From contig JAHRHZ010000085.1 of assembly GCA_024137785.1 (NCBI GenBank), positions 3,451,770-3,515,769 of the forward strand: DNA of 64,000 nt. The letters are read 5' to 3'. Positions 11,330 through 63,761 of the stretch are shown here, in pieces (the stretch's first letter is position 1; every line of letters starts with the position of its first letter). This DNA comes from Ginglymostoma cirratum. Taxonomy: Eukaryota. Made by a program: the position numbers and the translations under genes. The notes under the pieces are model-generated. The model was not told the origin of the DNA and made no database searches. It saw only the letters and a list, made by a program, of their open reading frames with translations.

Positions 11330-11615
11330 TTTTGGCTCTGAAGAAGGGTTACTGGATCTAAAACGTTAACTCTACTTTCTCTCAATGTGGAGATGCCAGA
11401 GCTGTACTAGGGTAGACAAAGTCAGAAGTCACACAACACCAGGTTATAGTCCAACAGGTCTATTTAAAATCACAAGTTTTCAGTTGACCAAGGAGCTGCG
11501 CTTTGAAAGCTGATATTTGAAATAAACCTGTTGGGCGAAAACCTGGTTTTGTGTGATTTCTGACAACTTTCACTCCACAAGCTTGCAGACTTGCTGAATT
11601 TTTCCAACAATATTT
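11330..11615. repeat. PLE terminal repeat interrupted by a fold-back element (about 11388-11568)
   Basis: Inverted arms gtcagaagtcacacaacaccagg...ccaacagg and cctgttgg...cctggttttgtgtgatttctgac. Confidence 0.65.
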
Positions 11616-12585
11616 TTATTCATTTGTGGGATGTGGGCATCGCTGGCTGGCCAGCACTTCTTGTGCTTCCCTAGTTGCCCTTGACAAGGTGGTGGTGAGC
11701 TGCCATCTTGAACTGCTGCAGTCCACCTGCTGTGGGTTTATCCACAATGCCTTTAGGGAGGGAATTCCAGGATTTTGAATGAGCATCAGTGAAGGAATGG
11801 TGATACATTTCCAAGTCAGGATGGTGATTGGCTTGGAGGGGAACTTGAAGGTGAAGGTGTTCCCATCAATCTGCTTCCCTTGTTCTTCTGGCTGGAAGTG
11901 GTCATGGGTTTGGGATGTGCCATCTGAGGATCTTTGGTGAATTTCTGCAGAGTATCTTGGAGCTCGTACACACTGCTTCTGCTGAGCGTCGGTGGTAGAG
12001 GAAGTGGGTGCTTGTGGATGTGGTGCCAATCAAGCGGGCTGCTTTGTCCTGGATGGTGACAAGCTTCTTGAGTGTTGTTGTGGCTGCACTCATCCAGGCA
12101 AGTGTGGAGTATTCCATCACACACCTACCTTGTGCCTTGTAGACTGTGGACAGGTTTTGAGGAGCCAGGAGCTGAGTTACTCACCACAGTATTCCGAGAT
12201 TCTGACTTGCTCTTGTAGCCAATGTATTTATGTGATGAGTCGAGTTGACTTTCTGGTCAATGGTAACCCCAGGGTGTTGATCGTTGGGGATTCAGTGATG
12301 GTAACACAGTTGAAATCCAAGGGGCGGTGGTTAGATTGTCTCTTATTTGTGATGGTCATTGCATGGTATTTGCGTTGCATGAATTTTACTTGCCACTCAG
12401 CCCAAGCCTCGATAATGTCCAGAACTTGCTGCGTTTGAACATGGACTACTTCAGTATCTGATGGGTTATGAATGGTGCTGTGCATTGTGCACTCATTGGC
12501 GAACATCCCCACTTCTGACTTTATGATGGAGGGAAGGGCTATGACGAATCAGCTGAAGATGGTTGGACCGAAGACACTACCGGGT
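11616..12585 (-). mobile_element. CR1-group LINE: RT C-terminus and 3' UTR
   Basis: Encodes FANECT (YADD-like), AWAEWQVKF..KYHAM and MEYSTLAW..IQDKAARLI. Same family as 36085, 41990 and 58655. Confidence 0.85.
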
Positions 12586-13999
12586 TAGATTGATTCAAAA
12601 AGTTAATTGTTGCATGGTTAATAAAAGAAAAACGAAGAGAAGTGTTTTTGAAACAATCTGGAGAATCTGCCAAAGTGGCAATGAAGGTGAGAAAAATGAA
12701 ACAAACTTGGTTATGAGCTGATAGATTCTTTAATGTGATTGTATGACCATAGTTATGTCTATTTTAGAGAAACTCAGGTGAGGCACAGGCAGCGATGTAG
12801 AGCAATGTTCCTCTGAAATTACAAAGTGAAACTTACAGCCATCATTATGATGCCTTTCAACTACTTGTTGTGAAATTCTCCAAAAGTCATCACCTAGATT
12901 CCCAAACTACATACCGATTTGTCTGTGGCAGCTAGGACAGCAAGCATGTCAAATGGTAAATGTAGTAAGTGATAGAATTGGTTAGTCAATTTCACAGCGA
13001 CCAGGCCAGGTATGTAATTTTACGTACTGCCACATCCAGTTGTGAGAGGTGTTAAACAATGAAACAACTTACTGGAGTAGGTGGCTCCACAAATATTCTC
13101 ACTCTTATTGATATAGGAATCCAACACATTTTCTGCAAAAGATAACGCTGAATCATTTCCAACAAAATTCAGCCAGAAGTGCAGAGTGGATGGGCTTACT
13201 GACCTCTTCAAAATGTCTAAAGCATCACTAATGCTAGTCGTCAGCTAATTCAATTCACTCTACATGATATGACTAAATGATGCAAAAGTTATTGGCCCTG
13301 ACATCAGTCCAGAAATAGTACTGAAGACATATACTCCAGATATGTCGGGGTCCCTTGACAAGCTGTTCAAGCACAGCAGCATTTTTAGATTCTACCAGGC
13401 AATGTCGAAAATTGAAACAAATGAAAACAGAAATTGCAAGAGAAACTCAGCAGGTCTGGCAGTTCTGTGGATAGAAAAACAGAGTTAACATTTCAAGTCT
13501 GATATGACTGATCTCGCAAGGAATCAAGGGCTATGGGGAGAGTGCGGGTATGTGGAGTTGAAATGCCCATCAGCCATGATTAAATGGCGGAGAGGACTCG
13601 GTGGGCCGAATGGCCTTACTTCCACTCCTATGTCTAATGGTCTTGTGGTCTCATGGACTGAAGAAGTCATACCAGATTCAAGCATTCTATCTGTTTCTCC
13701 CTCCAGTGTTCTCTGTGCTTTTTCCCTGCCATGAGGGAAGGTGAGTCCAGATGCAGAGGACGCTGTTTTAAAATTAGTGGTTGCATTTTTGGACAGAGAC
13801 GACGATTTTTATTTCCTCTGAGGAAAGGTCACAGGATAAATCCAACCCACCCCATTACTTCCCTATCAAGATCGTCTTATGCATCTGTAAAAAGTTGGAT
13901 GAAATCCATAGCGCTAACACTGGTCCTTCTATAACGAACTCAATGATACTCAGTTCAATTTCCACTCAGCTATTGACTTCATTAATGACTTGGATCATT

Positions 14000-14545
14000 T
14001 TGTACAGGACTTTGGTGAGGCCACTTTGGGATTACTGTGCACAATTCAGGAAGAATATTATTAAATTGGAGAAGGTGCAGAACAGATTTAAAAGGATGTT
14101 ACTGGGACTGGAGCAGTTGAGTTATGAGGAGAGACTGGATAGGCTGGGACTTTTTCACTGGAGCATGGGAGGCTGAGGGGTGATGTTATAAATGATTATG
14201 AAATCATGTTTCGATGAGGTGAATAGCAAAGGACTTTTCCCTCGGGTAGGGGAATTCAAACCTTGGAATCAGATTTTAAGGTGAGAGCAGAAAGATTTTA
14301 GAGGGACCTGGGAGACATCATTTTTCACACAGAGTGGGGTTCATTATCGAATAAACTGCCAGACGAAGTGATAGATGCAGATTGAGTTGCACAATTTAAT
14401 GGATATTTGGACAGCTACATGAATAGGAATGGTTTTATGGAATATGGGCCGAGTGCAGGCAAATGGGACTAGTTTGGTTTGGAAAACTTGATCAGAATGG
14501 ACATGTTGGACCAAACGGTTTGTTTCCGTCCTCCATGACTCGATG
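14000..14545 (+). mobile_element. CR1 LINE 3' end
   Basis: LYRTLVRPLWDYCAQF..LEKVQNRFKRML..YEERLDRLGLF followed by a CR1 3' UTR. Confidence 0.88.
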
Positions 14546-14559
14546 GAAAAAATAATCAA

Positions 14560-15100
14560 CTAAAGATGAGGGAACAGTGACAGGTCTTGATATCAAGGCT
14601 GCATTTGACTGGGTTTGGCATCAATGATCCCACACAAAACTGAAGGAAATGAGAATTGAGGGAAATCCCCATTGGTTAGAGTCATAAGTAGCATGCAGGA
14701 AGATGGGCCAGATTGTTGGAATTCAGTCATCTCAAATCTAGGATGTCTCTGATGGTGGCCCTTGGGTTAGATTCCTTGGCCCAAACATCTTCACGTCCTT
14801 CATCAAAGACCTTCCCTCCACTATTACACCAGTGTTAGGGACATTCACTGATAACTGCACAATAATCAGCAGCATTTACATGGCTTCAGTTACTGGAAGA
14901 GTCCAAGTGCAAATGTGGTAAAACCTGAACAATGTCCAGGTTTGCGCTGACAAATCCATGAATCTTTGAAGATCACCTTCCAAATCCATACCCACTGCTG
15001 TCCAAAATAACAGGACAGCAGATACATGGGAACACAAACACCTGTATATTGCCCTCTATCTGATTTGGAAAGTTTTCATGGGTCCTTCAGTGTTGCTGTG
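14560..15100 (+). mobile_element. CR1-group LINE RT fragment
   Basis: LDIKAAFDWVWH and FTDNCT motifs, decayed. Confidence 0.7.
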
Positions 15101-15279
15101 GTAATGGGAGATGAGACAGTGGCTCAGTGACGAGCACAGTGCCAGGACCCGGTTTCGAAACATCAGATTTCCTGCTCCTCTGATGCTGCTTGGTCTGCTG
15201 TGTTCATTCAGCTCTACACCTTGTTATCTCAAATAATTCTATCAGTTTATTTATCGATGTCATCACGAGGTTCCAATTG

Positions 15280-21035: not shown

Positions 21036-24000
21036 ATTAACACTGAATGGTTTGATTTGGTGACGTCATTTTTAAGCTCACACGACACAACATCCATTGA
21101 TGTTTTCAAACTAGATTATCAAAACATTACACAAGCATGTACATGCTGCTCAGTATCTACAATTTGGTTAGACACACAACGTCGTTTTCAGACCATTACA
21201 CAGGTATATAAAAACAAGAAACGAGCAATTAAAAATAATATAAACAATTGGATACTGTAACAGGTAGCGTACTGCTGAAGCTTTTGGTGTCCACCTGTCA
21301 AATACGACCCACTAATGATGCATGGTAAGGGTTCCTAAATTGCCTGCTTTGCGAATCAATTGATCATGGCTGTAAGTCATGGCAGTTTCTTGACGTAAGA
21401 AGCCCTGGTGTATTGTTGCCAAGTGAAAAATAATCTGTTGATGATTGGCAAGAAGAGCTTGCAATTTCTTAAATATCACATGCGGAGATACCCTACTCGA
21501 TACACAGTTATCGAATCTCATTCGTTGATTATATGGTGTTTATATCTCATTTCCTCACAGATAATACGTGTTTTGTCCCGAAGTAGGTTGGCAGATTGTT
21601 CCTCTCTCTTCTCATTGAGGTCGACAATATGAGGGCTGGAAACAAATTTGTGGTTCAGGCCAATTTCTTCGATGATTGTATCATGTTTCAAAGGTAGGGA
21701 AATATAAGGGGCACACCAAGCCTCCTGGCTATTGTTCCCGGTGGGTCTACTTGTTGTTGTCCAGCCGTTTCTCAGAAAACACAGGTGTCCGTGACATATC
21801 CAAGACAGATGAGGTAGGGTGATAGACTGATACCATATTTGCTGCTACGTTTTTTTTTTAAAGATAGCATGACATGCTGTGACAGCGTAATGACCAATTA
21901 ACATATCAGGCATAAATCTTAAGTTGGTAATGGTGACGTGAAATATTTGTTTCCAAGACAACAGGTGTCCGGATGGCAATGCATTGGTTACTTTGACATC
22001 AATGTGCTAAAATATACAGCTCGAGCAGATTACAATGTATTCAGTTAGCTTCAGCACTGAGATTTATCTGGGTGTAATACATTTCCGAAATGGTGCTATT
22101 AGCAAACTTCCACACTTTATCAGTCAAAAACCTATTTGCCAAATCTCGATGGGTAAATGGTTTGGCACACACAACAAATAGTTTAATAGTTTTCTTAGTT
22201 ACTTGCCCAGCTTTAGCAATTCTATTTTATATAGTCTCAATGCCCATGGAAGTTCACACAACTTTTCCCGCCTCTGCTCTACCGAGAATAGTGACGAGTA
22301 CATTTCTCCTGCATCGCCTCTGTAATGTTTATCGTGGGTATACCGAGAGGCAATGGGAAGGTTATTTATTTCAATTAGTTATCTCCACTGTCGCAGTTAA
22401 AACAATATTCGGTTTGGGGTGCAGGTGTCATACAAGTACTGAAGTTGGAGAAACTGTATAGAATTTAATGGAGCTGAATTCATGGCTCACCATAATAATC
22501 CCCAAGGCGGTTTGACACAGCAGCTGATCACCCAGCATATGAGCCACCGCCAGGCAACCTCTCTCTCAGGAGCTGTACCTCAAAGTCAGAGTAAGAAATC
22601 ACTTCAATGGTGAGGTTTAATTAGATTAAGTGAGGGACATGCCTTCTTCAATAACCTCACATCGCTATAACTCTTTGGGCCATTTCTTTTGCGGTCCGGG
22701 CTTGCAACTCACTGATTTTATTTCTCACATTGTCAGGAATCACACCCTCTCCCCGACCCATTTTATTCTCAGCAAAATAACACACCGGCTTGGTCCCTGG
22801 ATTTCTTTAGAATTGATTTCCCAGCCTTTATTCCGTAGGTCCTGAGTCAAAGTAACTATGTCTTCGGCTATTGCTTCCTCTGAAGGGCCATGTAGCAATA
22901 TATCATCAATATAAGGGGATGTTATATCGCTGGAGAGAGAGGACATCTCCAAATCCTGGCTATTAAACCATGGCAGAGAATGGGAATGTGCAAGTAGCCC
23001 CGCACAACCTGCAAATTGTCTGCTTTCTGCCCTCCTGTGTGAAAGCAAAGTGATTCTGTGAATTCCCATCAAGGAAATGAAAGTATTAGGGAGGTAGATT
23101 CTGGCAAACCATTCATCAGTTCCCAATGACAGTTGCTCCGGTAATGTTACAATCTCTGGGAGAGCCAATGCCAAAGATGGGGTCTGTTGGCTTAACCGTC
23201 AGTCATCTACCGTCATTCTCCAGTTACCACCTGGTTTCTGTACTGACCACACAAGGCAGATATACAGGAAGACGGCAGGTCATGCAACCTTTGCTGTCAC
23301 TGACCCTTCAATTGTGTCTGTGATCTCCTTGTGCCCTCAATACTGCTTACCGTTAACAATTCGTGAAGGAATGGAATGTATTGGAGTCGCAATTAGCTTT
23401 CTCAACTATTGCATTCATCCTTCATTCACCAAAACAAGACTTTCCAATTGGGGTACATATTTCTATCCCTTAACAACATCCATCCCGACAATATTTTTGT
23501 TTATACTGCATATTAACACAGATACCATCCGCGGTGGTCTATTCCCCTTTGCCAATCACACCAGTGCCCAAAGCGCCCATGGTTCTGTTCTCTCAAATCT
23601 ATTCATAATCATTTCAGTTCGCAGATTTCTGGACGGTATTGAGCAAGAGCACAACGTGCTGTTTGTTTCCATTTCTCCAATGAATTCTGCTAGAGATGTA
23701 TTGCCTCTGGACCCCTGAGTCGATTCCCACTATTGGTCACATCTCAGTGTGCCGGCAACCTTCCCAGTCCAGGGAATTACTCACTCTCCACATCTCCTCC
23801 AGCTCCTCTCATGTAGGGTACAGAAGGAACTCTGACATATCCGCCTTTTTTTCTGAGAAAGAGCATCTAAATCAGAATTGGGGTCTCACATCATGGGAGG
23901 GGTCGATGAGTTTTCAACCCCGGTTCTAAGGGGCAGTTCTGAGGAAGGGTCACTGGACCTGAAACGTTAACAAAAACAAAGTTGCTGGAAAAACTCAGCA

Positions 24001-25745
24001 GGTCTGGCAGCATCTGTGGAGGAGAAAACAGAGTTAACATTTCGGGTCCAGTGACCCTTCCTCAGAACTGGTGGTGTCTGGGAAACGTCAGTTTATATGG
24101 AGAAAATAGGGAGGTGTGTGGTGCAGGGAGTAAACGATAGGATAGAGCCCAAAGCTAGAGAAAGACAGTTGGACAGACAAAAGAGTTGCAAACGATCCGA
24201 CTGGGAGGGTGAATAGTTGTTAATGGGGACTGTTAGTGACTAACAACAGCGGGTGTGTAATGGCAGGCTATGTGGTAACAAGGCCTGGTGTGTGGGTTTG
24301 GGGGTCTGCAACATGGGAGAGTTAGGCCCTAAAAATTATTGAACTCAATATTGAGTCCAGAGGGCTGTATGGTCCCCAAGCGGAAAATGAGGCGTTGTTC
24401 CTCCAGCTTGCCGTGGGCTTCACTGTGTCAGTGTAGCAAGCCGGAGACAGAGATGTTGGCCAGGGAGCAAGATGGTTCATTGAAGTGGCAAGGAACAGGT
24501 AGTTCAGGGTCCTTTTTGCGAGCAGAACGTAATAGTTCCGCGAAGCAGACGCCAAGTCTCTGCTTCATTTCCCCAATGTAGAGGAGACTACATTGTGAGC
24601 AGCGAATGCTGGAGATTAGATTCTTGAAAGTGCAGGTGAAGTGTTGCTTCACCTGGTAGGTATGTTTGGGCCCTTGGATACTGTGGAGGGATGAGGTAAA
24701 AGCGCAGGTGTTGTACCTTCGCCAGTTCCAGGAGAAGGTGCCATAGGGCAGTGGGGAGGTTTTGGGGGTGAAGGAAGTGTGGACCAGGGTGTCCCAGAGG
24801 GAACGGTCCCTGCGGAAGGCGGACAAGGGAGGGGAAGGGAATATATGTCTGGTGGTGACATCTTGCTGTAGGTGCCGGAAATGGTGTCTGATGATCTTTT
24901 GGATGTGGATGCTAGTGGGATGGGAGGTGAGGATAAGGGGAACCCTATCGCTGTTGCAGGAGGGAAGATAAGGGGTGAGGGCAGAAGTGTAGGAGATGGG
25001 TTGGACTCGATTGGGGGTACAGTCGACAACGGGCCAAAATGTGAACTCTGTTTCCTCCTTCACAGACGATGCCAGGCCTGCTGAGCTTTTCCAGCAACTT
25101 TGTTTTTGTTGCAGGTTTTACAGTTTGACTGTCTGTTCTTACCAGCTGGGCAGTTAGACACACCAATGTTCTGCCCTTCTCACATTCCGACCACTTAATC
25201 TGCTCTGTCAACACCCTTTCTCCCCAAGCACTTCCCCCCCACCCCCACACCCACCCACCATTGTATAAATGCTGTCCCCTCTCGGCTTCACCAGCTCTGA
25301 TGAATGGTTGTCTTGACCCGAAACGTTAGCTTGCTCTCTCTCCATGGATGCTGCCAGACCTGCTGTGATTTCCATTACTTTTTGTTTTTGTTGCGGGCTG
25401 TACTAGTCTGCTTCTACTCGGCTTTATATGTTCTTTCCTGAGTGGTCGAAGCCGCCGTCGCCAGCCCAGCGGTCAATGTCCTGGTCACCTCCTTTAAATA
25501 TCGCACCTCCTGGGGCAGCAGACGGGAGGCTGCTCAGCAGGATCCACCCCATGTGGTTGACGCCCTTGGTTTGGAAGGGTCTAGGCCCGAAACGTCACCG
25601 TTCTTCTCCTCTGATGCTGCTTGGCCTGCTATGTTCATCCAGCTCTCCACCTTGTTATCTCAGATTCTTCAGCATCTGCAGTTCCTACTATCTCTATTAC
25701 AGGACCATCCCGGGACACAGAATGCTTCAACAGACAAAGTAACTG
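21035..25745 (-). mobile_element. ERV-L/class III-like endogenous retrovirus internal region (decayed gag-pro-pol) with nested PLEs
   Basis: ORF 22740-23174 has YIDDILL..LRNKGWEINSKEIQGPSRCVILLRIKW (ERV-L-type RT). A GWILLSSLRLL gag-like start lies near 25500-25550. Flanked by the LTR pair. Confidence 0.78.
23935..25390 (-). mobile_element. Penelope-like element 3' part (GIY-YIG endonuclease) with terminal repeats, nested in the ERV
   Basis: ORF 24428-25063 has RVPLILTSHP..CSQCSLLYIGEMKQRL. Same family as 40740-41930. Confidence 0.9.
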
Positions 25746-25747
25746 CC

Positions 25748-26272
25748 TCTTTAAATTCTGGTAAAAATGAGTACTAATGTACTTCAATATATATAATTTA
25801 TTGTGTTATAATACTTTACATATCTGAATTACAGCTGTTCGTTTACACTACAAATATATATATTAAAGCTAATTTGTGACGTTAACCTACTGAGATATAT
25901 ATTCAACATGTGAGCTTCACACTGCCTTTCCTCTCCCCGGGAACTTTGGCGATGGCGGTGCTTGAAGCTCTATTTCCGGTTCCACGGCACCTGTCTCACG
26001 CCCAACAGTGAAAGTCCAATGAGTGGGGCAAAGTCCCCGATATTACGCCTGCTCTGAATCTAATGTTACACGCTGATTCACTCTTTTGTCGTATTTTCAG
26101 CTCGTTCCCACGCAGCCCACTGGACAAAAACAGGCTGAGAACACTTTCAAAGAGGTTCCTTTTTAAGTCCACAATATTATGTGTCGCTCCAAGCCAAAAG
26201 AGGCTGTTTTGCAGAAATCTTGTACTTTTGCACTTGTCCTCAACTGCACATTGTCATGTCCAATTAACCTTA
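25748..26272 (-). repeat. 5' LTR of the endogenous retrovirus
   Basis: Direct repeat of 20462-21035, upstream of the gag-like sequence on the minus strand. Confidence 0.75.
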
Positions 26273-28629: not shown

Positions 28630-30360
28630 TCTTGACCTACCTCGACTCCATTTACTCCCCTTTGGTCCAGGCACTCCCCAACTACATCTGGGACACAAAC
28701 CATGCTCTTTGGAAACTTTCAGTTCCCTGGCCCCGAGTGCTTCATCTTTATCATGGATGTGCAATCCCCATACACATCTATTCCCTCCAAGTACGTCCGA
28801 GAGGCCCTCAGTCTTTTCCTCTCTAACAGACCCCTTCAGTTCCCTTCCAGCAACACCCTCCTCCGTCTCGCTGAACTGGTCCTCACTCTCACTAATTTTT
28901 CCTTCAATTCTTCCCGTTTTCTCCAAATCAGGGGGTTGCCATGTGCACTCGCGTGGGCTACAACTATGCCTGCCTATTTGTCAAATCGTCCCTCTTCAGT
29001 ACGTACACCGGTCCCGTTTCCCAAATCTTCTGCTGTTACATCGATGACAGCATCGGGGCTGCATCCTGCACCCAGGCTTAACTGGAGCAGTTCATTGACT
29101 TCACTAACAACTTCCACCCCACCCTCACATTCCCTTGGTGTATCTCAGACACCTCCCTTCCCTTTCTTGATCTCTCCGTTTCCATTTCAGGCAACAGTTT
29201 ATGGACCAACATTTACGCTCAACCCACAGACTCTCATTGCTACCTGTACTACACATCCTCCCACCCTGTATTCTGCAAAAACACCATCCCGTTTTCATAA
29301 TTCCTTCATGTTCGTCACATCTGGTCTCACAAGGTCTACTCTCAAGCATCCCGGATGTCCGCCTTTTTCAATAAGTGCTCTTTCCCCGCCTCTGACATCC
29401 AGATGGCCCTCCAACACGCCTCCTCCATTCTGCACTCGACAGCTCTGAACCACTGCCGCACCCCAAACATAATAAAGAGAGGGTCCCCCTTGTCCTCACT
29501 TCCCACCCCACCAGCCTCTGCATCCAATGTATCATCCTCAAACACTTCCACCAACTGCAAGTAGCCCACACCACCCAGAACATCTTACACTCCCCACCCC
29601 CTCTTCCTTCCGCAAGGACCATTCCCTTTGCCACTCCTTAGTTTGCACCACACTCCCGACCAACCACTCCATTACCTTGTCCTATAACCATAAAAGACAC
29701 AATGCCTGCCCACACACCACCTCTCTCACTTCTATCCTGGGCTGTAAACAGTCCTTCCAGGAGAGACAGAGCTTTCGCTGCATCTCCGCCAACCTGGTCT
29801 ATTGCATCTGGTGCACCTGATGTGGTCTTCTCTACATCAGTGTGACGAAACATAGACCAGGTGATCTTTTCGCCTGGCCTGTAATGGCGAGCCTAATCTC
29901 CTGGTCGCTGTCCATTTCTACTCGCTGGCCCCCCAAACCCCTCAGACATGCCCGTTCTTGGCCTCTTCCAGTGTCGCAGTAACTCAAAGCATCAACACCT
30001 TATCTTCCGCCTGGGCACCCTACAGCCTGGAGGGCTCAACATTGAGTTCTCCAATTTCAAATAACCTTCCCACCCATCTGCCACCTCCCCTTCCAGCCCC
30101 ACCTCCTCTGTTTCATTCCACCTTCTGACCCTCCCTTCCAGCCACCAAGCGGATTCATCTCTCCCATTGACCAATCAAGTCAAAAAATCCATCTATCACC
30201 ACCATTCTTCTTCCCTCCCATCTCCCCTCCAATTTTTTTTTCTGCAGCTCCCCCAACCAGCATATCAGTCCTGCAGAAGGGTAATACCCGAAACGTTGAC
30301 TTCTCCTTTCTTCCAGGTGCTGCCTGGCTTGCTGGGTTCATCCAGCCTTCTGTTTTCCTT
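28630..30360 (+). mobile_element. Penelope-like element: RT, GIY-YIG and 3' terminal repeat, decayed
   Basis: FIMDVQSPYTSIP, LRLAELVLTLTNFSFN, YIDD and NLVYCIWCT motifs with many frameshifts. Confidence 0.92.
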
Positions 30361-36735: not shown

Positions 36736-37380
36736 CAAAAATGTTATTGGAACAGTTAGGTGGTTGTTTTTGACCAGTGCAGATGTGATGGGCTCAAGGG
36801 TCTCTCTTTGTGCTTTTCATCTCAATGACTCTATGAAGCTATGACTCTAAAAGGGCAAACTAAGTTGAAAACCCTGGATAATGTAAGCCCATGAAGACTG
36901 AGAACAAGTAGCATTATAATGTTCCAAAAAAGTGTTAGTTCAGACCTTAGTTTAAGGGATTCAAGTTCAACATTCCAGACCCTAAATCTTTGGTTAGAAT
37001 CTTGAACATGATACTTGAAGCTGAGAATATCTAAGTATATTTCTGTGAATAATAAAGAGAGAGGCTCTCACACTGTCATGAGCAGGTAATGAAATAAACA
37101 GTTAAATCAAAACTGTAGGTGTTCGAGGGAGGAAAGTTCTTTCTTGTTTTGCAGCATCGTAAAATGATGGGATGATATTCATAACTTGCGTTTCTAAACT
37201 GTTTAAAATACGATACATGTGAACAGCTTGGATCATTCTATTTTCTCTTCACACAGAATAGATGTATCATAGAATCCCTGCAGTGTGGGAGCAGGCCATA
37301 TGGCCCATTGAGTCCACAGCGAGCCTCTGAAGAGCATCCCATCCAGACTCACCTCCTCACCCTAGCCCTGTAACCCCACT

Positions 37381-40300: not shown

Positions 40301-40655
40301 TTGTGGACCACTTTGCAGAACACCTCAGCTCGGTTCGCAACAAACGACTGTACCTCCCAGTTGCGAATCATTTCAACTCCCCCTCCCATTCCTGAGACAA
40401 CATGTCCATCCTGGGCCTCCTGCAGTGTCACACGAAGGTTGCAGGAACAGCACCTCATATTTCGATTGGAACCCTGCAGCCCAATGTTATCAATGTGGAC
40501 TTCACAAACTTCAAAATCTCCTCTCCCCCTACCGCATCCCAAACCCAGCCGAGCTTGTCCCTGCCTCCCTGACATGTCATTCTTCCAACCTGTCCCCTCG
40601 TCCCACCTCAAGCCCCAGCCCCATTGCCTACCTACTAGTCTCATCCCACCCCTGG
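37381..40655 (+). mobile_element. Near full-length Penelope-like element inserted next to a V-SINE tail
   Basis: N-terminal domain, Ala/Thr/Pro-rich spacer, SVLSKGLTF, IKPADK, AMGTHMGP, RYIDDC and YCIRCTHCGLPYIGETKR (GIY-YIG). Interrupted by stops and frameshifts. Confidence 0.93.
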
Positions 40656-40803
40656 ATATGTTCAGATGAGGCCAACTTCGACAAGGGAACCTACGAAAAC
40701 TCCATCGCATATGTTCAGATGAGGCCAACTTTGACAAGGGAGCCTCCGAAAACTCCGTTGCATATTTTCAGATGAGGCCAAATTTGACAACGGAGCCTCC
40801 GAA
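40656..40803 (+). repeat. 53-bp tandem repeat, about 2.8 copies
   Basis: Units start at 40656, 40709 and 40762 (atatgttcagatgaggccaa...). Confidence 0.9.
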
Positions 40804-41945
40804 GTGTCCACGTTCTTCCTCAACCAAGGATTCCCCAGCTCTGTTGTCGACAGGGCTCTCAATCGGGTCCGACACATCTCCTGCTCTTCTGTCCTCACCC
40901 CTTCTCTTCCTTCCCGCAACAGCGATAGGGTACCCCTTATCCTCACCTACCATCCCACCAGCATCCACATCCAGAAGATCATCAGACTCCATTTCCGCCA
41001 CCTCCAGCAAGATGCCACCACCAGACACATATTCCACCCAACCAGCTTCACTTGTCTGCCTTCTGCAGGGACCCTTCCTTCCAGGACACCCTGGTCCATA
41101 CTTCCTTCACCCCCAACTCCTCCCCACAGCCCTACGGTACCATCCCTTGTAACCTGCGAAGATGCAACAGCTGCGATTTTACCTCCTCCCTCTACAGTAT
41201 CCAAGGGCCCAAACGTACCTTCCAGGTGGAGCAGCACTTCACCTGCATTTCCAAGAATCCAGTCTACTGCATGCGCTGCTCACAATGTGATCTCCTCTAC
41301 ATTGGGGAAACGAAGTATCGACTTGGCGACCGCTTCGCAGAACATCTATGTTCTGATCGCAAAAAAGACACTGAACTACCTGTTGCCTGCCACTTCAATG
41401 CACCACCTTGCTCCCTGGTCAACATCTCTGTCTCCGGCTTCCTACAGTGTTCCAGTGAAGCCCAGCGCAAGCTGGAGGAACAACACCTCATTTTCCGCTT
41501 GTGGAACCTACAGCACTCCGGACTCAATATTGAGTTCAATAATTTTAGGGCCTAAACTCTCCCATGTCCCAGCCCCCAACCCCGCACACCAGGCCTTGTT
41601 ACCACACAGCCTGCCAATACACACCCCCTGTTGTTAGTCACGAACAGTCCTCATTAACATCTGTTCACCCTCCCAGTCTGATCGTTAGCAACTCCTTTGT
41701 CTGTCAAACTGTCTTTCTCTCTCTTTGGCTCCATCCTATTATTTACTCCCTACCCCACCCACCTCCCTATTTTCTGCATATAAACTGTCGTTTTCCCAGC
41801 CAACATCAGTTCTGAGGATGGGTCACTGGACCCGAAACTTTAACTCTGTTTTATCTTCCACAGATTCTGCCAGTCCTGCTGAGATTTTCCAGCAACTTTG
41901 TTTTTGTTCCCGATTTACAACATCCACAGTTCTTTTGGTTTTTAT
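40740..41945 (+). mobile_element. 5'-truncated Penelope-like element (GIY-YIG and 3' terminal repeat)
   Basis: ORF 41052-41555 has VYCMRCSQCDLLYIGETKYRLGDRFAEH..GLNIEF. Confidence 0.92.
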
Positions 41946-45591: not shown

Positions 45592-48500
45592 TGTAAAAAC
45601 CGAACTGACTTGAAATAGCAACTGAACTAATTAACTGTTCCAACATAGTCACTTCCCAGAAACACACCCCCTGGCAAAAAGGTAAATTCAAATCCAGATT
45701 CTTACAGACAGGCCGGAACAACATCCAGAGAGAGATTTCAGAGAAAGTCAGAAGAATCCTTGACTGAAGCCTGCAACACTTCTGGTACTCAGAACATCTT
45801 GTGACTGCTACGGCCAAAAAAAAAGAGAAAAAACCTGAACTGGGAGAACTGTTAGGTATCATTGTTAAACTGTTACTCCTTAGACTATTTTTCACCTCCA
45901 TCTTTGCAAACTCTTTTCCAAAAAACCAAAGACAAAATAACCTTTTCAAAGTGACAGCATTGTCACACCTCACCCTTAAAAATTATGAATAATCAATATA
46001 CAACGATGGTTTCAACTCAAGTTCCTTAGTCTTACTCTATTAGTACACTACAATATCCGTACATTACATTGAATCTAAGCAAGCAAACATTCACTCTCAC
46101 ATTTTATTTCAGTCTGTTCACTCCTGCCACCAAATGCCTCCGCCTTTCTTCATCCAAGATGTGATAACATGTCAGCAATTACGATTTCTCCTCCATCCAT
46201 GTGTGTAATTTTCAAATTGAATGGCTGAAATAATAAACTCCATCTAAACAGTCTGGAATTCTTGTCCTTAAATTGCTCCAAAAACTTTAATGGGTTCTGA
46301 TCAGTGTAGACAATTGTCTCAGACACATTACTGAAAATAGGAATGTTGAAATACCGTAACGCCAACAACAAGCTCAAGGTCTCTGTCTCAATCATGGAAT
46401 ATATATGTTGAAGAATATTCAGTTTCCTGGAGAAATACCTGATAGGTTATTCTATCTTATCATTATCTTCTTGGAGGAGTACAGTTTTGACACCCACATC
46501 ATTCACATCGACAGCCACCTTGAAAGGTGGCTAACAGTGGGGCAGTGGTTAACACAGCTTTCAGGCTATCAACGCCTTCTGACAGTCTGCCATCCCTGAA
46601 ATTTTCTGCACTTCCCCAATAAGTCAGCCAGTGAAGCAACCATACTGCTAAAATTTGAACTTCAAATAAAACCCATTCAATCCCAGGAATTGTAGTGCTG
46701 CTGTCTTCTACGATGTTATGGGAATCTCCTCAATAAACTTTATTTTCACATTCTGTGGGGCCATCTGTCCAAGTCCGATAACATCCCAGGAATGTGACTT
46801 GGGCTTTGGAAAATTCACTCTTAGCCGGATTTATCACCAAGCCTGCCTCCCAAAGTTGATCGAATAATCCTGATAAACGCTGTAAATATTCCTTCCACGT
46901 GTGACTAAGTATCACCAGGTCGTTGATGTTTCCTACACTACTGCATAATCCAGAAATGACTTTACTGGTTGGTCTTTGATATGTAGCTGGTGCATTTTTA
47001 ATACTAAATGTCATGACTTTAAATTGGTATAACACATTTGGTGGGATGAAAGCTGAAATCGTCTTCACTGTTTTGGATGAAGGTACCCTCCAGTATCCTC
47101 TGAGTAAGTCCAACATGGAAATATAAGTTGCTTGGCCCACCTTCTCTATACCGTCTTCCAAACTTGGAATCGGACATGAATCAGACTTTGTTATTGCATT
47201 GACTTTGCAATAGCCTACAGTGAGTCATTGGGCACTATCTGCTTTTGGCACCATTACTATGGGTGAGCTCCAGTCACTGCAACTCGCTTTGATTATGTTG
47301 TCTTGGAGCATGTGTTCATTTCTCTTTTTGAACCTCTGACAACTTTAGAGGGATATGTCTCTGAGAATGCTGCTTAATTGGAACAGCATTTCTTATATCT
47401 ACATAATGCATAATCAAATTAGTACTTCTCATCTTATTCCCACCTATCTCCACATGCAATAGTATTAATTCTGTCAGGTCATTTTGATTTCCCTCTGGAA
47501 AGTAACACAGTAATTTATCCCAGTTTCTGAGAACTTCCTCATTATTCAATTTAATTAGAGGAATGTCCAATTCAGAATTCTCTTAACTGGGTTCTTCATT
47601 TTGTGTTGTAACCAGTAAAACATGCTCCTTTTGCTTACATTCCCTACCAAAATACCCTTTTAGTATATTCACATGACATACTCTGAGATTTCTTTCTATC
47701 TGAAATTCTTATCAAATAATTCACTTCACTCAATCTCCCTTCGATTTGATAATGTCTGCTAAACCTTTCCTTTAAAGGTTCACCTGTCACTGGAAGGAGC
47801 ACTAACTCTTTATCTCTGTCAGCAAAGTTGTAAAATTTTGATTTTTTTTGTCTACTTTCTGCTTAATCATATGCTGTGCTACTTTTAAATGTTGTCTGGC
47901 CAACTCCCCTGCTCTATTTAATTATTCCCTAAATTTTTACACACAGTCCAAATATGTGATCTCTGAATTTTAACTCACCAATTTCTCCTGAGTAAATTTC
48001 CGTGATCCTCTCACCTCATGCCCAAAAACTAATTCCAATGGACTGAATTTGGTCGATTTGTTTGGTACATCCCTCTTTGCAAAAAGTACAAACAAAATTC
48101 TTTTTCTTTATCATTTGAGTAGTCTTGACTATAAGCTCTTAACATGACCTGTAAAGTTTTTTTTTTTGCCCAGCTATCTAATGCTCCCTGTGATTCATAA
48201 TAGTACGCAGTGGATTTGAAATGTTTTATTCCTAAGATATCCATAATTTCACTGAATAATGTTGATGTAAAATTTGACCCTTGATCTGATCATATCTCTG
48301 TGGGTAACACTTCAATAATCCCTTTAGCTGTGATATTGCGTAATGGAATGGCCTGTGGAAATCTGTGCACACATCCATTGTTGTTGACAAAATCTCATTC
48401 TTACTTTTTGTTTTAGATAGGGATCCTACTCCATCAATTAAGACTCCTGCGAAAGCTTCCGCAAATGCATGAATGGATATGAAAGGTGTTGGCTTTATTC

Positions 48501-48959: not shown

Positions 48960-49655
48960 GGATAACACAGTGTGGAACTGGTGGAACACAGTGGGCCAGG
49001 CAGCATCAGAGGAGCAGGACTGTTGACGTTTTGGGTCAGGACATCTTTTCAGAAATAGGGGAGGGGGGAAGAGAACTCTGAAAGAACTGGAGAGGGGAGG
49101 GGTGGGGCTGATGAAGGTAGGTGGGATGGTGATAGATGAGTGAGGCAGTGGTGGGAATTTGGCAGTGAGGTGGGAGGAGCGGATAGTTGGGAGAGATGAC
49201 GGAAAGGTTGTGTCAGGTCAAGGAGGCAGGGATGAGATGGAGGGTTGGTCATGGGATGAGGCTGGAGGTGGGGAGATTTTGAAACTGGTAAAGTCCTCAT
49301 TGAGACCATTGGGTTGCAGGCTACCAAGGCGGAACATGAGGTGCTGCTCCTGCGGTTTCCAGGTGGTGTCATTGTGACACTAGAGGAGGCCGAAGATGGA
49401 CATGTCACCCAGGGAGTGGGAGGGGTAGTTGAAATGGTTTGCAACTGGATGGTGTTGTTGTTTGTTGTGAACGGAACGCAGGTGCTCTATAAAGCGATCT
49501 CCGAGCCTCAGCTTGGTCTCACCGACGTAGAGGAGGCCACAGCGGGAGCAGCAGACCCTGAGGAAGGGTCACCAGACACGAAACGTTAACTCTGTTTTCT
49601 CCTTCACAGATGCTGCCAGATCTGCTGAGCTTTTTCAGCAACTTTGTTTTTGATC
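48960..49655 (-). mobile_element. Penelope 3' fragment plus an inverted terminal repeat at 49556-49655
   Basis: Encodes LYVGETK..EQHLMFRLGSLQPNGLN on the minus strand. Confidence 0.85.
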
Positions 49656-49949
49656 TTGTTAGCTAGTTGTTTTACAATTCGGTATCTCAGTCTTCCAAAG
49701 GTATAAAAGTAATTTACTAAATTTCTTTAGCCACTTCACTTTTCAGGAAAGTGCAAGTTCATAACAACATATTCCCTTCGGAACTTGTCACCTTCCCATA
49801 ATTCCTAATGTGTTTATTCATTCTTGATTTTGACTGAACATTTAACGCTGGATGAACTGTGACCGACGCAATGCCTTTACCCCACACTTATTTTGTCAAC
49901 TATCTTTTGTCAACTCTTGGATGCAACTATTTGGCAAAACTCTTCTAAA

Positions 49950-50560: not shown

Positions 50561-50974
50561 CATTGATTTTAATCATTGTGTACTCGTCGGTCGCAGAAGG
50601 CATTCATGTCAGTAGCAAATTCATAATGAAATAATTTTGTTAGATTGGTTTGCCATATTTTCCGAACCAAATGAGTCTAGATGAGTTTTCAAAATGTAAT
50701 CGGTGAAGCATTGTACTTTATGTGGAAGCTATATTAGTTTTTTTGCTATTGTTGAGAAAACAATAAACAAAATATTTAAATAACTGCTGAGGCATATATC
50801 AACATGATTAGTTCAAATGGAAATTGATCTCTTTCTCTAATTTCATTGTCACTTCAATAAAGAATAACTTTGCATTTTCATCGCTCAGAACCATTCGCCT
50901 GTCTCTGTGGCGCACTGGATTATGGCTTTTGGCTGTTAAGCAGAAAATTGGAGTTTCAAAACCGCCCAGAGACA

Positions 50975-53574: not shown

Positions 53575-53700
53575 AGATAGTGGGAACTGCTGATGCTGGA
53601 GTTTGAGATAACACAGTGTGGGGCTGGAGGAACACAGCAGGCCAGGCAGCATCAGAAGAGCAGGAAAGCTGACGTTTCGGGTTGGGACACTTCTTCAGAA
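53575..53700 (-). ncRNA. PLE terminal repeat with minimal hammerhead-like motif (53671-53698)
   Basis: CTGAAGA agtgtcccaaccc GAAACGTC on the minus strand. Confidence 0.5.
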
Positions 53701-55601
53701 AGTCTTTGTCCTGATTTTCTCAGGACACCCAAGAATGAAATGGACCTTTTTTTGCACCTCCAGGACAGAAGTGAGTCTTTTTTGCGCCACAAACTATTTT
53801 AAATGGCTTGACAGCCTTGGTGACAGGACCAGCATTTGGTGCCAACAACTGCTTACTATTAATGCCCCAGTAGTGAACCAGCTTTCTTGACATTGGCAGT
53901 CCAGATAATTTAGTTACATTGTAGTCAGAGAGGGAGGTTGGGTAAAATTCTTTTTCGAGAACAAATTCAGATCCATGAGTGAAACTGAGACAAGAATGCT
54001 GTTGAATTGATTTAAAGATTTGAACTGTTTTAAAAATGCATTTAAAGGTATTTAATCTGCTGGTCTGCATTGTATTCAATCGCAGTCAATACCCACATGT
54101 GCAATTCAATTGCACGCTCTGAAATCGGCAATAAAGATTTACTTTTTTACACGTTTTAACAAACTGTTCTCAGCTATTCATGAATAAGTCCTACTTGCTC
54201 CTTTTCATGTGCCACAGATAGGGAGCTTCCTCTCACATTGAACTGATATTCACTTTTTGAAAATTATAAACGAGAGAAATTTTCCTCACAATAGCTCATC
54301 GATTTCCGTTTCAAGGTAGCGTAACGCTGTTGCATGTTGCACGAGCAGAGTGGCATCCAACAGTAAAAGTTGTCTCAGGAAGCCAACATGCGCAAGCTCA
54401 GAGAAAGCAAGAACTGCAGATGCTGGAGTCAGAGACAACACGGTGCCGGGTGGAAAGAACATAGCAGGCAACCAGCATCAGAGGAGCAGGAAAGTTGACC
54501 TGAAACATCAACTTTCCTGCTCCTCTATTGCTGCCGGCCGACTGTGTTCCTCCAACTTGTGCAAGCTGTCTACACAATATATTCTGTTCTTTAGTACAGG
54601 TGCTCAGGAGAAGTCACTCATAATCACTGAAGTCAGACTGATGGATGAGGTAAGTTTGAACAGCTGAAAAAGGAAGGAGAGAACACAAACCTCTCCTTGC
54701 AACTCGAAATCTACCATCCAAAATAGTCATCATCCCAACGTAATCAAAATTGATTATAATATCTGTAATCAATATGGCAAAATTATTCAGCACACTGCCA
54801 CTTGTTAATAACCAAAGAAAAGAAAAATCAAAACTTTTTGTCAGCTTCGAACCTATGATTGACATTTGAAAGTAGCAGCGTAAGTTAACTGACGTCGCTT
54901 ACATATTTAAACACATCTTTGCCTGTTTAAAATAGTTGCAACTGTTTGTGAAACTTCCTACAACTTTCTTTTTCCTTTATTTTGGTTTTATTCAGCTGAA
55001 ATTGTGCTTCTGAGAGCTGACGAAATCTTCAAGACTTATCTTGACATGTTGGGAATATACATTTCTGTTCCTAGTTTGAATTGTTCAACGAGACTTCAAA
55101 ATAAAAATAGATAGAATATAGGAAATTTGCCTCACAACATTTTCACGTTGAGTTGGATTTATTGATTTAATTCTTTCCCCATCCTGAGAAATAAAAATGA
55201 CAGATTTCGCAAAAAAAATCAGTCGATACTTGTATTCCTCAGCAAACCAAAGAAACCAAAAGCAAGTCAACTAGTATTTGGCAATTACAAACAGGGTACA
55301 GTAGGACCAATAGTTTTGCAATGTAGCTCTAAATGTTACACACAGTTACATTGAATTTATGTTTTGAAGGTTGAAGCTATGGAAACTTCTATCAGCAATG
55401 AATTTCACCATCACAATTTTGATCGACACCGATACAACTTTGCAAACTGAAAACTTCAAATCTTCTTATTTGATAATTTAATGAGAAGCAAGGCATCTTT
55501 TTGAAAGAGCTTTCTCTTAAAATAGTTGCTTAAATTATACAGTTCAGAGTTCAGTTCCCAATTATGTTAATTTCAGTGAGAGATTTCATTCCTGTTCATA
55601 C

Positions 55602-59460: not shown

Positions 59461-59651
59461 CATTTTTAATACAGTGTAGATCTCAAACTTTGAGGTGTTA
59501 CTGATTCATCCATATTCTTGAACACTTTTCATTTTAAGAAAAAGTGCAAATAATTTACACGAAATGTCTGGATCTGATAAATTGATTTGTTTACTGTTGT
59601 TGATTGTTCTTAAGCAGCTCGGACTCCGTGTTTATCTGCGGTGACACTGAC

Positions 59652-59960: not shown

Positions 59961-60263
59961 CTGTCAACCAAGGAAACACACTGAGATTAAACAAGAAGGA
60001 CGGGCTTCAGCACACAAATTACACCATTATTCCAGGCTATTGATGCAACAGCAATTTACCACATTTTACTCTTCAACTAATTCTTCCATTTTTAAACTAT
60101 TGTACTAATTGTATGTTTTTTTTTTCTGACAGACCCAGTGGCACCTGAGTTTTGGGAATAACTGACTTGAAAAAAAAGTAACCATTAATTTATCAAATCT
60201 AGCTGTAAGTTCACATTGTGTCTTGCCTATTAACAGTGAATGCATAGCAAAATAAATGTGTAC

Positions 60264-60347
60264 TTGCACACGAGATGCACGGCAGACAGACAGACAGCCC
60301 GCAGTGAATGATGCACAGACATATCAGCGGGTAAAGTTTGAGATCAT
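60264..60347 (-). pseudogene. Copy C: leader exon, frameshifted
   Basis: Aligns with 17787-17868. One nt shorter between the two ATGs and 4 nt longer within a (gtct)n run. Confidence 0.6.
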
Positions 60348-61254
60348 CAGTTGTGACTGAGAACAGGACAGACAAATGCTTCTTAAAAGCTTATCTCTTT
60401 TCCAATTCAATCAGATACGTATTTGTGCGTTAATGAGCACATGACTAATTTCTGAGTGAAAAAAAATCATTCCTTTTCAAATAAGATCTGCTGGTTTTGT
60501 AACTGGAAACTGCCACAAAAATGATGACTTTAAAGAAGGTACACAATGTATTTTGGAGGTTAGTTTTGGGACTTGATTGAATGGGGTGACGATTTTTCCA
60601 TTGAAACAAGACGAGTGAGAGAGAGAATTTAGTTGGGATGCATAAAACTCAGATGGGCCGAGGCATAGCAGATGGGGAAAAGGTCAGTAACCTGCATATT
60701 GAGTTCAGTGATGTGGGGATATAGATTTAAAAGCATTGATAGAAAAGCTTAATGGGGAGATGATGAAACAGTTTATCCCAGAGTGTGGTAACCATCTGGA
60801 ACTCGTTTCCTGAACTGATATCAGAGACAGACAACTTTGACCCTTTCACAACTTGTTTTTGCTTAGATGTGCACTTGAAGTGCTGTAATCGACAAGGCTT
60901 CACACTAAATCCTCGATAGTGTGATTTGATTTGTTGGCTCCTTTTTTTGGCAGGCAGAGCCAAGTGCTTTTGGTCTTAAGTGCTGCTAACTCCTTAAAAT
61001 GAAATGTTGTGAAGAAGCCGGCAACTGTTATTTGAAGGACATGGAGATGAACTGCTACTACATCCTGGAATACATGCAGGATAGTGGAGCACAGTTATAA
61101 ACCTCACACTCCTATACCCTAAAGAACTGAGCAGCAATGTCAGATTAACCTATCGAAATCCCTTTACTTATTACTTTTTAAAGCTTCCACATAACAGCAT
61201 CATGTCTTTGACAGCATTTCATTCAGACAATCGAGGCAAATTGTTCTCAAGGAT

Positions 61255-61630
61255 AAGAGATAAAAAGGTACTGCAGATGCTGGAGAATCCGAGATAACAA
61301 GCATGGGGCTGGATGAACACAGCAGGTCAAGCAGCATCATAGGAGCAGGAAAACTTGACGTTTCGGGCCTAAACCCTTCATCAGAAATGGGGGAGGGGAA
61401 GAGGGTTCTGAAATAAATAGGGAGAGAGGGGGAGGCGGATAGAGGATGGATAGAGGAGAGGATAGGTGGAGAGGAGGCAGACAAGTCGAAGAGGCGGGGA
61501 TGGAGCCAGTAAAGGTGAGTGTAGGTAGGGGGGTAGGGAGGAGATAGGTCAGTCCAGGGAGGACGGACAGGTCAAGGGGGCGGGATGATGTTAGTAGATA
61601 GGAGATGGGGGTGTGGCTTGAGGTGAGAGG
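61255..61630 (-). mobile_element. PLE terminal repeat / 3' UTR with a well-preserved minimal hammerhead motif (61353-61388)
   Basis: Minus strand reads attt CTGATGA a gggt ttag gccc GAAACGTC aagt. Confidence 0.8.
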
Positions 61631-61989
61631 AAAATTGTTCTCAATGACTGTTTACTATGTAACCTCTTTCACCAGTGAGTGCAGTGAAGGCATTCGCAGT
61701 TTATTGAGAGCCAGGAAGACAAACGATTGGTGCAAGGAACATTATAGGTCTTATCAAATAACGTATATTAAAAACAAATTTAAAATTGAGAGGAATTGAT
61801 CTTCATGTTGGGTTAGTTATTTTGTTGTGTTTAAGTATATTTCTAATTCTGGTAATTGGTGACATTGTTTCTTTAAAATGGCGTATTTTACAGACATACA
61901 TACATACTGGTTATTGAATAATTTGTTTATCTCATTATTCTGGTGCTTCAGCAAACTTCTTTTCCAATGTTCCACCTTAGGTCTGTCGA

Positions 61990-63140
61990 GACATGCTCTC
62001 ATCATGAGGAAACTGCATCGAGAATTTTCTGTCTCGGGAATCCATTGGCTCTATGGGATTACAAGGGTCTTGTAACATATATATTGCTGTAAATCAGTGA
62101 TTATTTCAATCTGTTGTGATCCTTTTCTCACAGAGATGTTCAGATATAAAGTTATTCCTGTTCGCTGTGGGTATGGGATCCTTTGTTTTTGTCAGTAGTT
62201 GTCGTAGTATAGCTCTGGGTTTGTGTGTTACCGCAATTCCTGGTGGTTGGAGTAATCTGGTGGTCATCTCCGATACGTTCCTGATGTGTGGCAGGGTGAC
62301 TAGCGTATCAGGGCATGCTGTGTCTTCCTGTTGTTGCCTGTTGTGAAAGGACCGGCAGGCAGAAAGTGCTTTTTGGGTCGCTGTTGTTCGCTACGGACAC
62401 TGTGGAGGTGTTCTTCTTCGGCTTTGCACAGTTCTGGGTGCTGCAGTGTGTTGTGGCTCTTTTCAACAAAGTGTTGGTGCAGCTTTATTTGTGGGTGTTG
62501 GGGTTAATCATTTGGACCGTATGGGTATTTTTCTGTATTCACTGTTCTGGAGCTCACCGATGGCCCTTCGTTCGACCATTACGTCCAGGGATGGGACGCG
62601 GTTGTTCTTTTTCTCTTCCCCAGTGAATTTATGCCGGTGAGGATGTTATTGATGAGTTGATGGGTTTGCTCCAATTTTGTGCGTTTGATAAAGACAAGTC
62701 TGACATCCACAGAGTGGACCCATAATTTTGGATGGACAATGGGAAGAGCTGTCCGTTCTCGTCTTTGCATTCCTGCTTCAGCTGTAAGTCCCGATATTCG
62801 TGATATCATGGGTTTTCTGTTGATTTTTTTGTATACCTGGCCATTGAAGGCAAAGTGGGTCGTGAGGCATAAATCTAGCAGTTTGAGGGTGCTGTCCTTG
62901 CTGATGGTATTGGAGTTGTAGGGGGTCGGCATTACTGGGTCATGCAGTAACGAGGCTATTGTTTCCTTAACTAAGGGGATATCTATGGAAATAAACAGTG
63001 CTGTCACATCAATGCTTTATTGGAAGCGCACTGGTGTTACCTAGTATGATGATGAAACGTCTGCAAACCAACCTTCCAGCTCGGTGACCAAACCAACAAC
63101 CTCATCCACAATGTGAGCTATCAGTCTTCTCAAAACTTTT
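61990..63140 (-). mobile_element. Penelope-like element of a second family (RT and C-terminal remnants)
   Basis: DVTALFISI, LLDLCLTTHFAFNGQVY and PKLWVHSVD motifs. Confidence 0.85.
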
Positions 63141-63544
63141 ACTCTCAATTATACTGGAAATCTATGCAGTACCTGTATTCCAGTCTGTGGCCTGTGTCAG
63201 AAACATTTAATTTGCACAACTGGAGGAACCAATTTATTTGTTCAAAGCCCAGAAAATTCCCAATTTACCTCGTTGTGGTGGATGTTGATGTCACATCAGT
63301 CTGTCAGTCTTCTTGGTGAAAAGAATCACCAATTACTTATTTCTTGTTCAACCAGGAACAATTGGTGAAATCAATATTGTTCTAATTCTGGCCGAACAAT
63401 TGAACACCCCAAATCACCACAGACATTCCACTTTCCTGACCCAAAGAACCCGTGAGAGAGAGACTGATGCAGACAGCCTGAGGAGGTCTATTCACTTTGT
63501 TCCACATTTCCACAGCATCTGTGTCAAACTGCATAAAAACTGAA

Positions 63545-63761
63545 AGAACTGCTGATGCTGTAACTCAGAAACAAAAACAGAAGTTGCTGGAAAAGCTCAG
63601 CAGGACTGGCAGCATCTGTGAAGAGAAATCAGAGATAACGCTTCAGGTCCAGTAACTGTCCTGAGGAAGGATCACCAGAACCAAAACGTTATCTCTGATT
63701 TCTCTTCGCAGATGCTGCCAGATCTGCTAAGAGTTTCCAGCAACCTCTATTGTTGTTTCTG
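63545..63761. repeat. Fold-back element made of two inverted PLE terminal repeats
   Basis: 63566-63655 is nearly the reverse complement of 63670-63761. Confidence 0.85.

Follow-up and report, generated by a model that had tools for sequence, protein, structure and literature searches.

Penelope-like elements carry minimal type I hammerhead ribozymes whose role has been stated to be unclear (PMC8557442). Such motifs cut weakly, either as dimers (PMC4209133; PMC6765202, which cites the dimer cleavage of Lunse et al. 2017) or together with protein (PMC11167929). In PAc, an element of Anolis carolinensis, hammerhead mutants leave insertion in vitro unchanged, and the tail of the element is tied to two internal starts of reverse transcription (PMC11167929). 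Here, we consider a 64,000-nucleotide stretch of the Ginglymostoma cirratum genome (assembly GCA_024137785.1, contig JAHRHZ010000085.1, positions 3,451,770 to 3,515,769, forward strand; hereafter, the window), in which a first-pass annotation had placed ten hammerhead motifs within the terminal repeats of Penelope-like elements. We regard it as nearly certain that the motifs in the window are minimal type I hammerheads of several Penelope-like subfamilies, present mostly as decayed copies. Taken as a whole, the best explanation for what we observe is that the hammerhead probably opens the capped RNA of its element, with RNA polymerase II starting at the adenine that opens stem I and with the uncut RNA serving as the template for new copies.

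These motifs are abundant. One tight hammerhead pattern has 91,664 exact matches across the 4.36 Gb of genome searched, versus none for a reversed-pattern control, and other patterns, which overlap, have 12,094, 1,063 and 735. The sample analyzed in detail, window included, spans 2.02 Mb; contiguous stretches make up 1.464 Mb, and 38% of their bases read N and are unscorable. Seven subfamily consensuses (F1a, F1b, F1c, F1d, F2, F3 and F4) were built from 52, 14, 6, 7, 17, 5 and 4 copies; the AGCT subfamilies are represented by few loci, so that F3 and F4 are thinly sampled. All seven consensuses have CUGAnGA, GAAA and an N-U-H cut site, and all seven have the ACGU palindrome (15.2-16.2) without a helix III in the monomer. 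The stem I types are ATTT/AAGT, ATTT/AGCC, ATTT/AGCT, AGTC/GACT (in two subfamilies), AGTT/AACT and AGCT/AGCT.

The observation that carries our argument is the place at which copies begin. We anchored 5' ends on the tail, the element DNA that follows the hammerhead, and counted positions relative to CUGA, which puts the stem I adenine at -4. Among 221 contiguous copies, 18 were dropped for N or an edge and 20 for identity below 85%. The 183 that were kept have 59 of their 5' ends at -8 to -1, 3 at -49 to -9, 65 over the whole of +1 to +50 and 54 further upstream, and the pile-up at -8 to -1 is present in all five stretches that hold copies. Exact matches to F1 across the genome show the same boundary: extending the match from +7 to +1 keeps 80% (83,353 to 67,019) and from -6 to -12 keeps 84% (42,461 to 35,627), and the step from +1 to -6 keeps 52% (67,019 to 34,667). 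From these counts, the genome would hold some 24,000 to 26,000 F1 mini-copies, that is, copies that run from the motif edge into the tail. An alignment artifact was rejected as the cause, given that 577 simulated uniform truncations yielded a nearly flat 3.4 to 7.8 ends per base with no step and a bias of at most 1.4-fold. When all data are combined, 161 copies start between -8 and +1; 79 of these have unique flanks, 74 are accompanied by an inverted partner (from the same group, with a single exception), 7 have a direct tail and 1 has element upstream DNA. Target-site duplications of 7 to 15 bp flank 28 of the 79 copies with unique flanks (control mean, 1.2). We also rejected a subfamily with an unseen upstream region as the origin of the step, since element upstream DNA precedes only that single copy and duplications flank the mini-copies themselves.

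What might set this boundary? The TATA box consensus is TATAWAW, and the initiator consensus is YYANWYY. In six of the seven subfamily consensuses, the only match to the former (up to one mismatch) in about 200 nt lies 29 to 32 nt above the stem I adenine, and in six of the seven that adenine sits in a YYANWYY context; stem I pairing ends at this initiator-like adenine. Judging from this layout, we find it quite likely that transcription starts at the stem I adenine under the TATA-like box. In poly(A) RNA reads, depth rises in a step at this position, from about 3,000 to 9,400 for F1 and from 450 to 1,700 for F2, and the aligned reads have no RNA ends at the cut site. The aligned read counts were 40,445 and 7,413 in run X21, for which no free ends are listed, and 16 and 2 in run X22; X15 consists of contigs. 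The element copies are transcribed, probably inside host RNAs, and the reads say nothing on start or cut. In a separate observation, run X21 differs from the window over 61230-61530 by T>C at 28 places versus A>G at 9; genomic F1a copies show the opposite strand bias, and RNA editing is one candidate for this excess.

A boundary at stem I could also be produced by some other sharp event there, namely, an endonuclease nick, a stall of the reverse transcriptase or a 3' splice site, and we consider this group of explanations unlikely. In favor of a nick, the Anolis endonuclease prefers ATT (PMC11167929) and F1 has ATTT at the boundary; yet F2, which has AGTT and not ATT, shows an equal pile-up (24 of 49), and the AT-rich TATA region upstream gathers no ends. 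A stall at the motif would be expected to fall on its 3' side. A splice site would fit the pyrimidine run and AG found at the boundary in F2, F3, F4 and F1d, as well as the intron of Drosophila virilis Penelope, which ends at helix I (PMC4209133). However, F1a to F1c lack the AG, F2 starts mostly keep it (A in 35 and G in 46 of 59), and no exon recurs among the unique flanks (9 similar pairs among 79). The position of the finest 5'-end peak, at -3, speaks for this group as a whole.

Where copies end, and where they do not, bears on the state of the template. Copies have two 3' sites about 33 nt apart, roughly 95 and 128 nt below CUGA, with 194 of 410 copies ending near the short site and 158 at or beyond the long one. 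In the 183 tail-anchored copies, 5' ends are about as frequent at the cut site as expected (8 observed, 7.8 expected). Among 296 core-anchored copies, 275 reach the tail and none ends exactly at the cut; 4 end within 3 nt of it, all 2 to 3 nt past it and two of them near-identical, too few to count as a cleavage footprint. The template would thus be uncut, because the motif is complete in the copies, which do not break off at the cut. According to a published model (PMC4209133), hammerheads in both repeats cut, and the released unit is circularized and then serves as the template. The conserved core and a dimer geometry that is possible in every subfamily suit this model, and a circular template would not necessarily produce ends at the cut and could give rise to the long copies. 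However, reverse transcription of a circle joined cut to cut would not stop at stem I, where a third of copies do; the ends just described do not cluster at the cut, and tandem cores are rare, with 2 of 55 neighbor distances below 500 bp. We therefore regard a circular template as improbable here. The same distances, taken for neighbors on one strand, and the 7 of 161 copies with a direct upstream tail led us to reject non-LTR retrozymes, which are tandem hammerhead units, as the identity of the mini-copies; the test covers the sampled stretches, and arrays may exist elsewhere in the genome.

The hammerhead structure itself was assessed in 112 copies that retain their upstream DNA, a subset of them from loci picked for intact cores. 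Stem I pairs 1 to 4 are paired in 92, 96, 80 and 71% of these copies and pairs 5 and 6 in 7 and 11%; helix II pairs are paired in 89 to 96%, and an extra A lies between 9 and 10.1 in 110. By subfamily, stem I is 4 bp long in F1a, F1d, F2, F3 and F4 and is weak in F1b and F1c, which have 2 bp next to the core and a mismatch at pair 3. Two-sided changes that keep Watson-Crick pairing turn U-A into C-G at stem I pairs 1 and 2, a further two-sided change turns G-C into A-U in stem II, and stem I pair 3 alternates between G-C and U-G. For 11 window copies, the true register beats every slid register on pairing and score, and the covariation score does not beat its shuffle control (90 to 185 of 500 shuffles score as high); at the subfamily level, permutation gives p = 0.043 for seven types and 1/24 for the four types in the first-pass annotation. 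That annotation had argued that compensatory changes support a selected RNA structure. The covariation is real but rests on about three subfamily-level changes, so that this argument was overstated. In the core, contiguous tail-anchored copies differ at 6 of 497 non-CpG sites versus 260 of 3892 in the flanks (6 of 357 versus 226 of 2796 without a stretch chosen for its density). Compared with one another, five consensuses have identities of 0.89 and 1.0 for the core boxes, versus 0.65 for stem I and 0.42 to 0.44 elsewhere. These data support selection on the elements from which the copies derive, although the independent events are few.

Alternatively, the motif may no longer cut in these subfamilies and may be kept as a promoter element or a protein-binding site, an idea to which we give little credence. 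Its ACGT, at about +28 to +33, falls in the region typical of downstream promoter elements; a downstream element, RGACGTGY, has been reported for Penelope (PMC2377424), the published activity of such motifs is low (PMC4209133), and stem I is weak in F1b and F1c. Against this idea stand the compensatory changes in stems I and II, a distance to ACGT that differs by 4 nt among subfamilies, and the Anolis motif, which cuts with protein and shows C3/G8 rescue (PMC11167929).

Several observations count against our own explanation, that transcription starts at stem I and that a functional hammerhead opens the RNA. The finest peak of 5' ends lies at -3 (22 copies) and not at the adenine at -4 (8 copies), with shoulders from -5 to +1, and an extra G of the kind that marks a cap is not enriched at copy starts (13 of 81 and 12 of 59). 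F4 has no TATA match, F3 is one base off the initiator, and the four F1 consensuses share one box, leaving two or three independent cases. In run X21, an unstranded library, free ends do not accumulate at the RNA depth step, and copy number is enough to account for the size of the F2 step. The conservation of the core is confounded by base composition, predicted monomer folds are no more stable than those of shuffles (z of -1.0 to +0.1), and in F1 and F3 these folds bury the core by pairing it with the cut region. Finally, D. virilis Penelope has a TATA-less promoter and starts upstream of the intron that ends at helix I (PMC2377424; PMC4209133); because this element differs, the start-site layout is not universal.

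We nonetheless favor the following sequence of events. RNA polymerase II would initiate at the adenine that opens stem I, below the TATA-like box. The element's reverse transcriptase would then start within the tail, some 95 or 128 nt downstream of CUGA, as has been shown for the Anolis element (PMC11167929). Priming on the 5' repeat would run off at the capped end and leave a mini-copy of 100 to 135 bp, priming on the 3' repeat would give long 5'-truncated copies, and two such products at one site would give head-to-head pairs. Cutting, for its part, would involve two motifs paired through ACGU, probably with an element protein, as the literature on related motifs suggests, and it would strip a capped leader of 31 to 35 nt from ahead of the reading frame. 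Because the cut would remove the capped leader, it is likely a late off-switch or a processing step and not the step that makes the template, and we put forward a gated off-switch or late processing step only tentatively as the function of the hammerhead. Equally tentatively, we speculate that one strand of helix I doubles as the polymerase II initiator, which would fix its length at 4 bp and give the motif its "minimal" shape, that the cut is a self-decapping switch, gated by protein and dimerization, that ends translation, and that uncut RNA seeds mini-copies by the tens of thousands.

In F1a, F1b, F2 and F3, loop II frequently has a self-complementary sequence (CUAG, CCGG, UCUAGA). Predicted dimers of F1 join by way of stem II and not through ACGU, which may be a second contact or a decoy fold. 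Upstream of the motif lie words with complementarity to the core, TTTCAGAA in F1 (61405-61412 in the window) and TTCAYCAG in F3; these could bury the 3'-repeat motif in long transcripts, whereas RNA starting at stem I would mostly lack them.

Within the window, all ten motifs of the first-pass annotation were located at the positions and on the strands given, and the flank pairs that it quoted (agtt/aact, agct/agct, agtc/gact and attt/aagt, the last with a G-U pair) are right. An intact CUGAnGA and GAAACGU-Y core is present in five of the ten (23939, 25297, 49558, 53698 and 61384). The others have a G12>A change (11338 and 63661), a broken ACGU palindrome (24065 and 41812) or an A6>C change (30271), and the motif at 61384 is the sole one to retain an intact core together with an intact stem I and stem II. 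Strict motifs number 5 in the window and one-mismatch motifs 11, compared with means of 0 and 0.63 (maximum, 4) in 60 dinucleotide shuffles. An Rfam scan of the window gave no hammerhead match at E values up to 10, which is to be expected because these forms have no helix III; likewise, pairing ends after 4 bp, so that the 6-bp helix I and loop contacts of a canonical type I hammerhead are lacking. The copies at 24065, 41812, 25297, 30271 and 61384 retain their own upstream element DNA, those at 23939, 49558, 53698 and 63661 start at the motif edge, and the sequence upstream of the 11338 copy has no recognizable element DNA; the 5' flanks of the latter five are therefore partly host DNA. In all, 20 tail-bearing copies were mapped in the window, more than had been listed before.

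The assignment of these repeats to Penelope-like elements also holds. A reading frame with a GIY-YIG endonuclease match precedes the 41812 motif (Pfam PF01541, E = 1e-4, above the cut-off), and a frameshifted body further upstream has DKR, YIDD and YIGET motifs in that order. This is the layout of an endonuclease-bearing (EN+) Penelope-like element: reverse transcriptase, C-terminal GIY-YIG endonuclease and, in the downstream repeat, a hammerhead on the same strand. Pfam gave no reverse transcriptase match for the element fragments, in which this domain is recognized through its motifs alone, and a PDB search with the endonuclease fragment gave no match. The optional tail and the adjacent inverted 5'-truncated copy of EN+ Penelope-like elements are both seen, as the two 3' peaks and the 74 of 161 copies with an inverted partner. 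In the F1 and F2 bodies alike, a CX4CxxC linker precedes the endonuclease. A CX2-5CxxC linker between reverse transcriptase and endonuclease is a hallmark of Neptune and Nematis that Penelope/Poseidon lacks (PMC8557442). By this sequence feature, the elements carry a Neptune/Nematis-type linker, which does not tell Neptune from Nematis, and the Penelope/Poseidon clade was dropped because the linker zinc finger is present here. In F1, the tail continues into the body, and the first long open stretch begins with an AUG some 140 nt downstream of the cut; other AUGs lie upstream, and this one is only the likely start codon.

Table 1. Hammerheads and associated element features in the window (coordinates count from its first base).
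Feature	Position	Strand	Remarks
Minimal hammerhead, F1a, fully intact	61353-61388	-	ATTT/AAGT, GUC; predicted cut after 61357
TATA-like box TATTTAT	61413-61419	-	First base 31 nt upstream of stem I adenine 61388
Tail below F1a hammerhead	61257-61352	-	Subfamily copies end near +93-95 or +128 (likely reverse-transcription starts)
Minimal hammerhead, F2	41808-41845	+	AGTT/AACT, GUU-type, ACGU broken; 3' repeat of the endonuclease-bearing fragment
TATA box TATAAA	41779-41784	+	29 nt upstream of stem I adenine 41808
F2 fragment, CX4CxxC linker and GIY-YIG endonuclease	40735-41555	+	PF01541; translation
Near full-length, frameshifted F1-type Penelope-like body	37372-40530	+	Without 5' repeat; AUG 37399, DKR 38756, YIDD 39478, CX4CxxC 40133, YIGET 40276
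Minimal hammerhead, F2	24032-24069	-	ACGU broken (CpG decay); long copy with own upstream
F2 hammerhead piece	23935-23968	+	Stem I adenine to about the cut site
Minimal hammerhead, F3	25293-25331	+	AGCT/AGCT, core intact, first stem II pair broken; TATAAA at 25264; runs on into element body
Minimal hammerhead, F4	30267-30301	+	AGTC/GACT, core A6>C
F1c mini-copy	53594-53701	-	Begins 3 nt before CUGA, ends in tail
F2 mini-copy	49558-49658	+	Begins at CUGA
Head-to-head decayed F2 mini-copies	63537-63656; 63658-63761	-; +	Joined at hammerhead edge
Decayed F2-type hammerhead	11334-11371	+	G12>A, short tail
Decayed F1c hammerhead in long copy	49021-49056	-	Absent from the first-pass annotation

Other details of these copies are recorded here as observations. 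The piece at 23935-23968 resembles a copied 5' cleavage product and forms a tail-to-tail junction with the 24065 copy. At 25293-25700, the F3 repeat and body are interrupted by an F1b mini-copy, and four F3 copies nearby have 140 to 500 nt of downstream body in common. Three tandem 53-nt units occupy 40656-40814, where the F1 body meets the F2 fragment. At 54478-54529, two tail pieces fold back on each other and attract a weak Rfam mir-761 score; this is an inversion junction of element copies, and we rejected it as a microRNA. Other mobile remnants include an AP-endonuclease frame at 201-977 (-) and an RVT_1 frame at 46730-47224 (-), and a tRNA-like head at 50901-50974 (+) falls below threshold.

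If the proposed start site is correct, the cut removes a cap rather than freeing a unit from a longer transcript, and the options for the role of the hammerhead narrow. One route, internal priming on the 5' repeat, would then account for the solo motifs and the inverted 5' repeats as well as for the short helix I, and the F1 mini-copies would be a genomic record of template ends. In the literature covered, mostly non-subscription papers in their accessible portions, we found no link of these hammerheads to transcription start or to the 5' ends of copies (the "shark" of PMC6155905 is, in the text available, a simile only).

The closest comparison is with the metazoan hammerheads of Cervera and De la Pena 2014 (PMC4209133), which are alike in CUGAnGA, one extra nucleotide, G10.1-C11.1 and an ACGU palindrome without helix III, as well as in a GUC or GUU triplet, a short helix I, many solo or opposite-strand copies and several covarying families per genome. 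That published consensus already includes the extra nucleotide and the GUU triplets, which had been put forward as variants in the window; the motif class and its covariation have also been described there, and what we add is the 5' boundary and the TATA/initiator layout. In the accessible portions of that paper, helix I is not linked to transcription start, and no cartilaginous fish is among the species in its table S1 and figure S3; its descriptor finds about 9,000 copies in Xenopus, compared with at least 91,664 here, although the searches are not the same. PAc (Frangieh et al. 2024, PMC11167929) is alike in having a hammerhead in the repeat, an uncut RNA template, two genomic 3' ends some 30 to 40 nt apart (the tail) and no RNA ends at the cut. 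It differs in that PAc belongs to Penelope/Poseidon and its frame starts in stem II, whereas the elements here have the linker type of Neptune/Nematis, and in F1 the likely start codon is found some 140 nt past the cut; neither a 5' pile-up nor a TATA box is reported for PAc in the portions available. Pen2a of Adineta vaga (Arkhipova et al. 2013, PMC3846280) shares a putative TATA box and initiator in its repeat and inverted 5' repeats, and it has target-site duplications of 8 to 10 bp. However, its TATA-initiator gap is 20 bp, and, in the text accessible, the layout is tied neither to the hammerhead, found a year later, nor to copy ends. Finally, non-LTR retrozymes (PMC7229834; bioRxiv 10.64898/2026.07.22.740005, a 2026 preprint that covers one cartilaginous fish for tandem retrozymes) are likewise non-coding type I hammerhead repeats derived from Penelope-like terminal repeats. 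Retrozymes form tandem arrays, whereas the mini-copies here are solo or head-to-head, have no promoter of their own and look like dead-end products.

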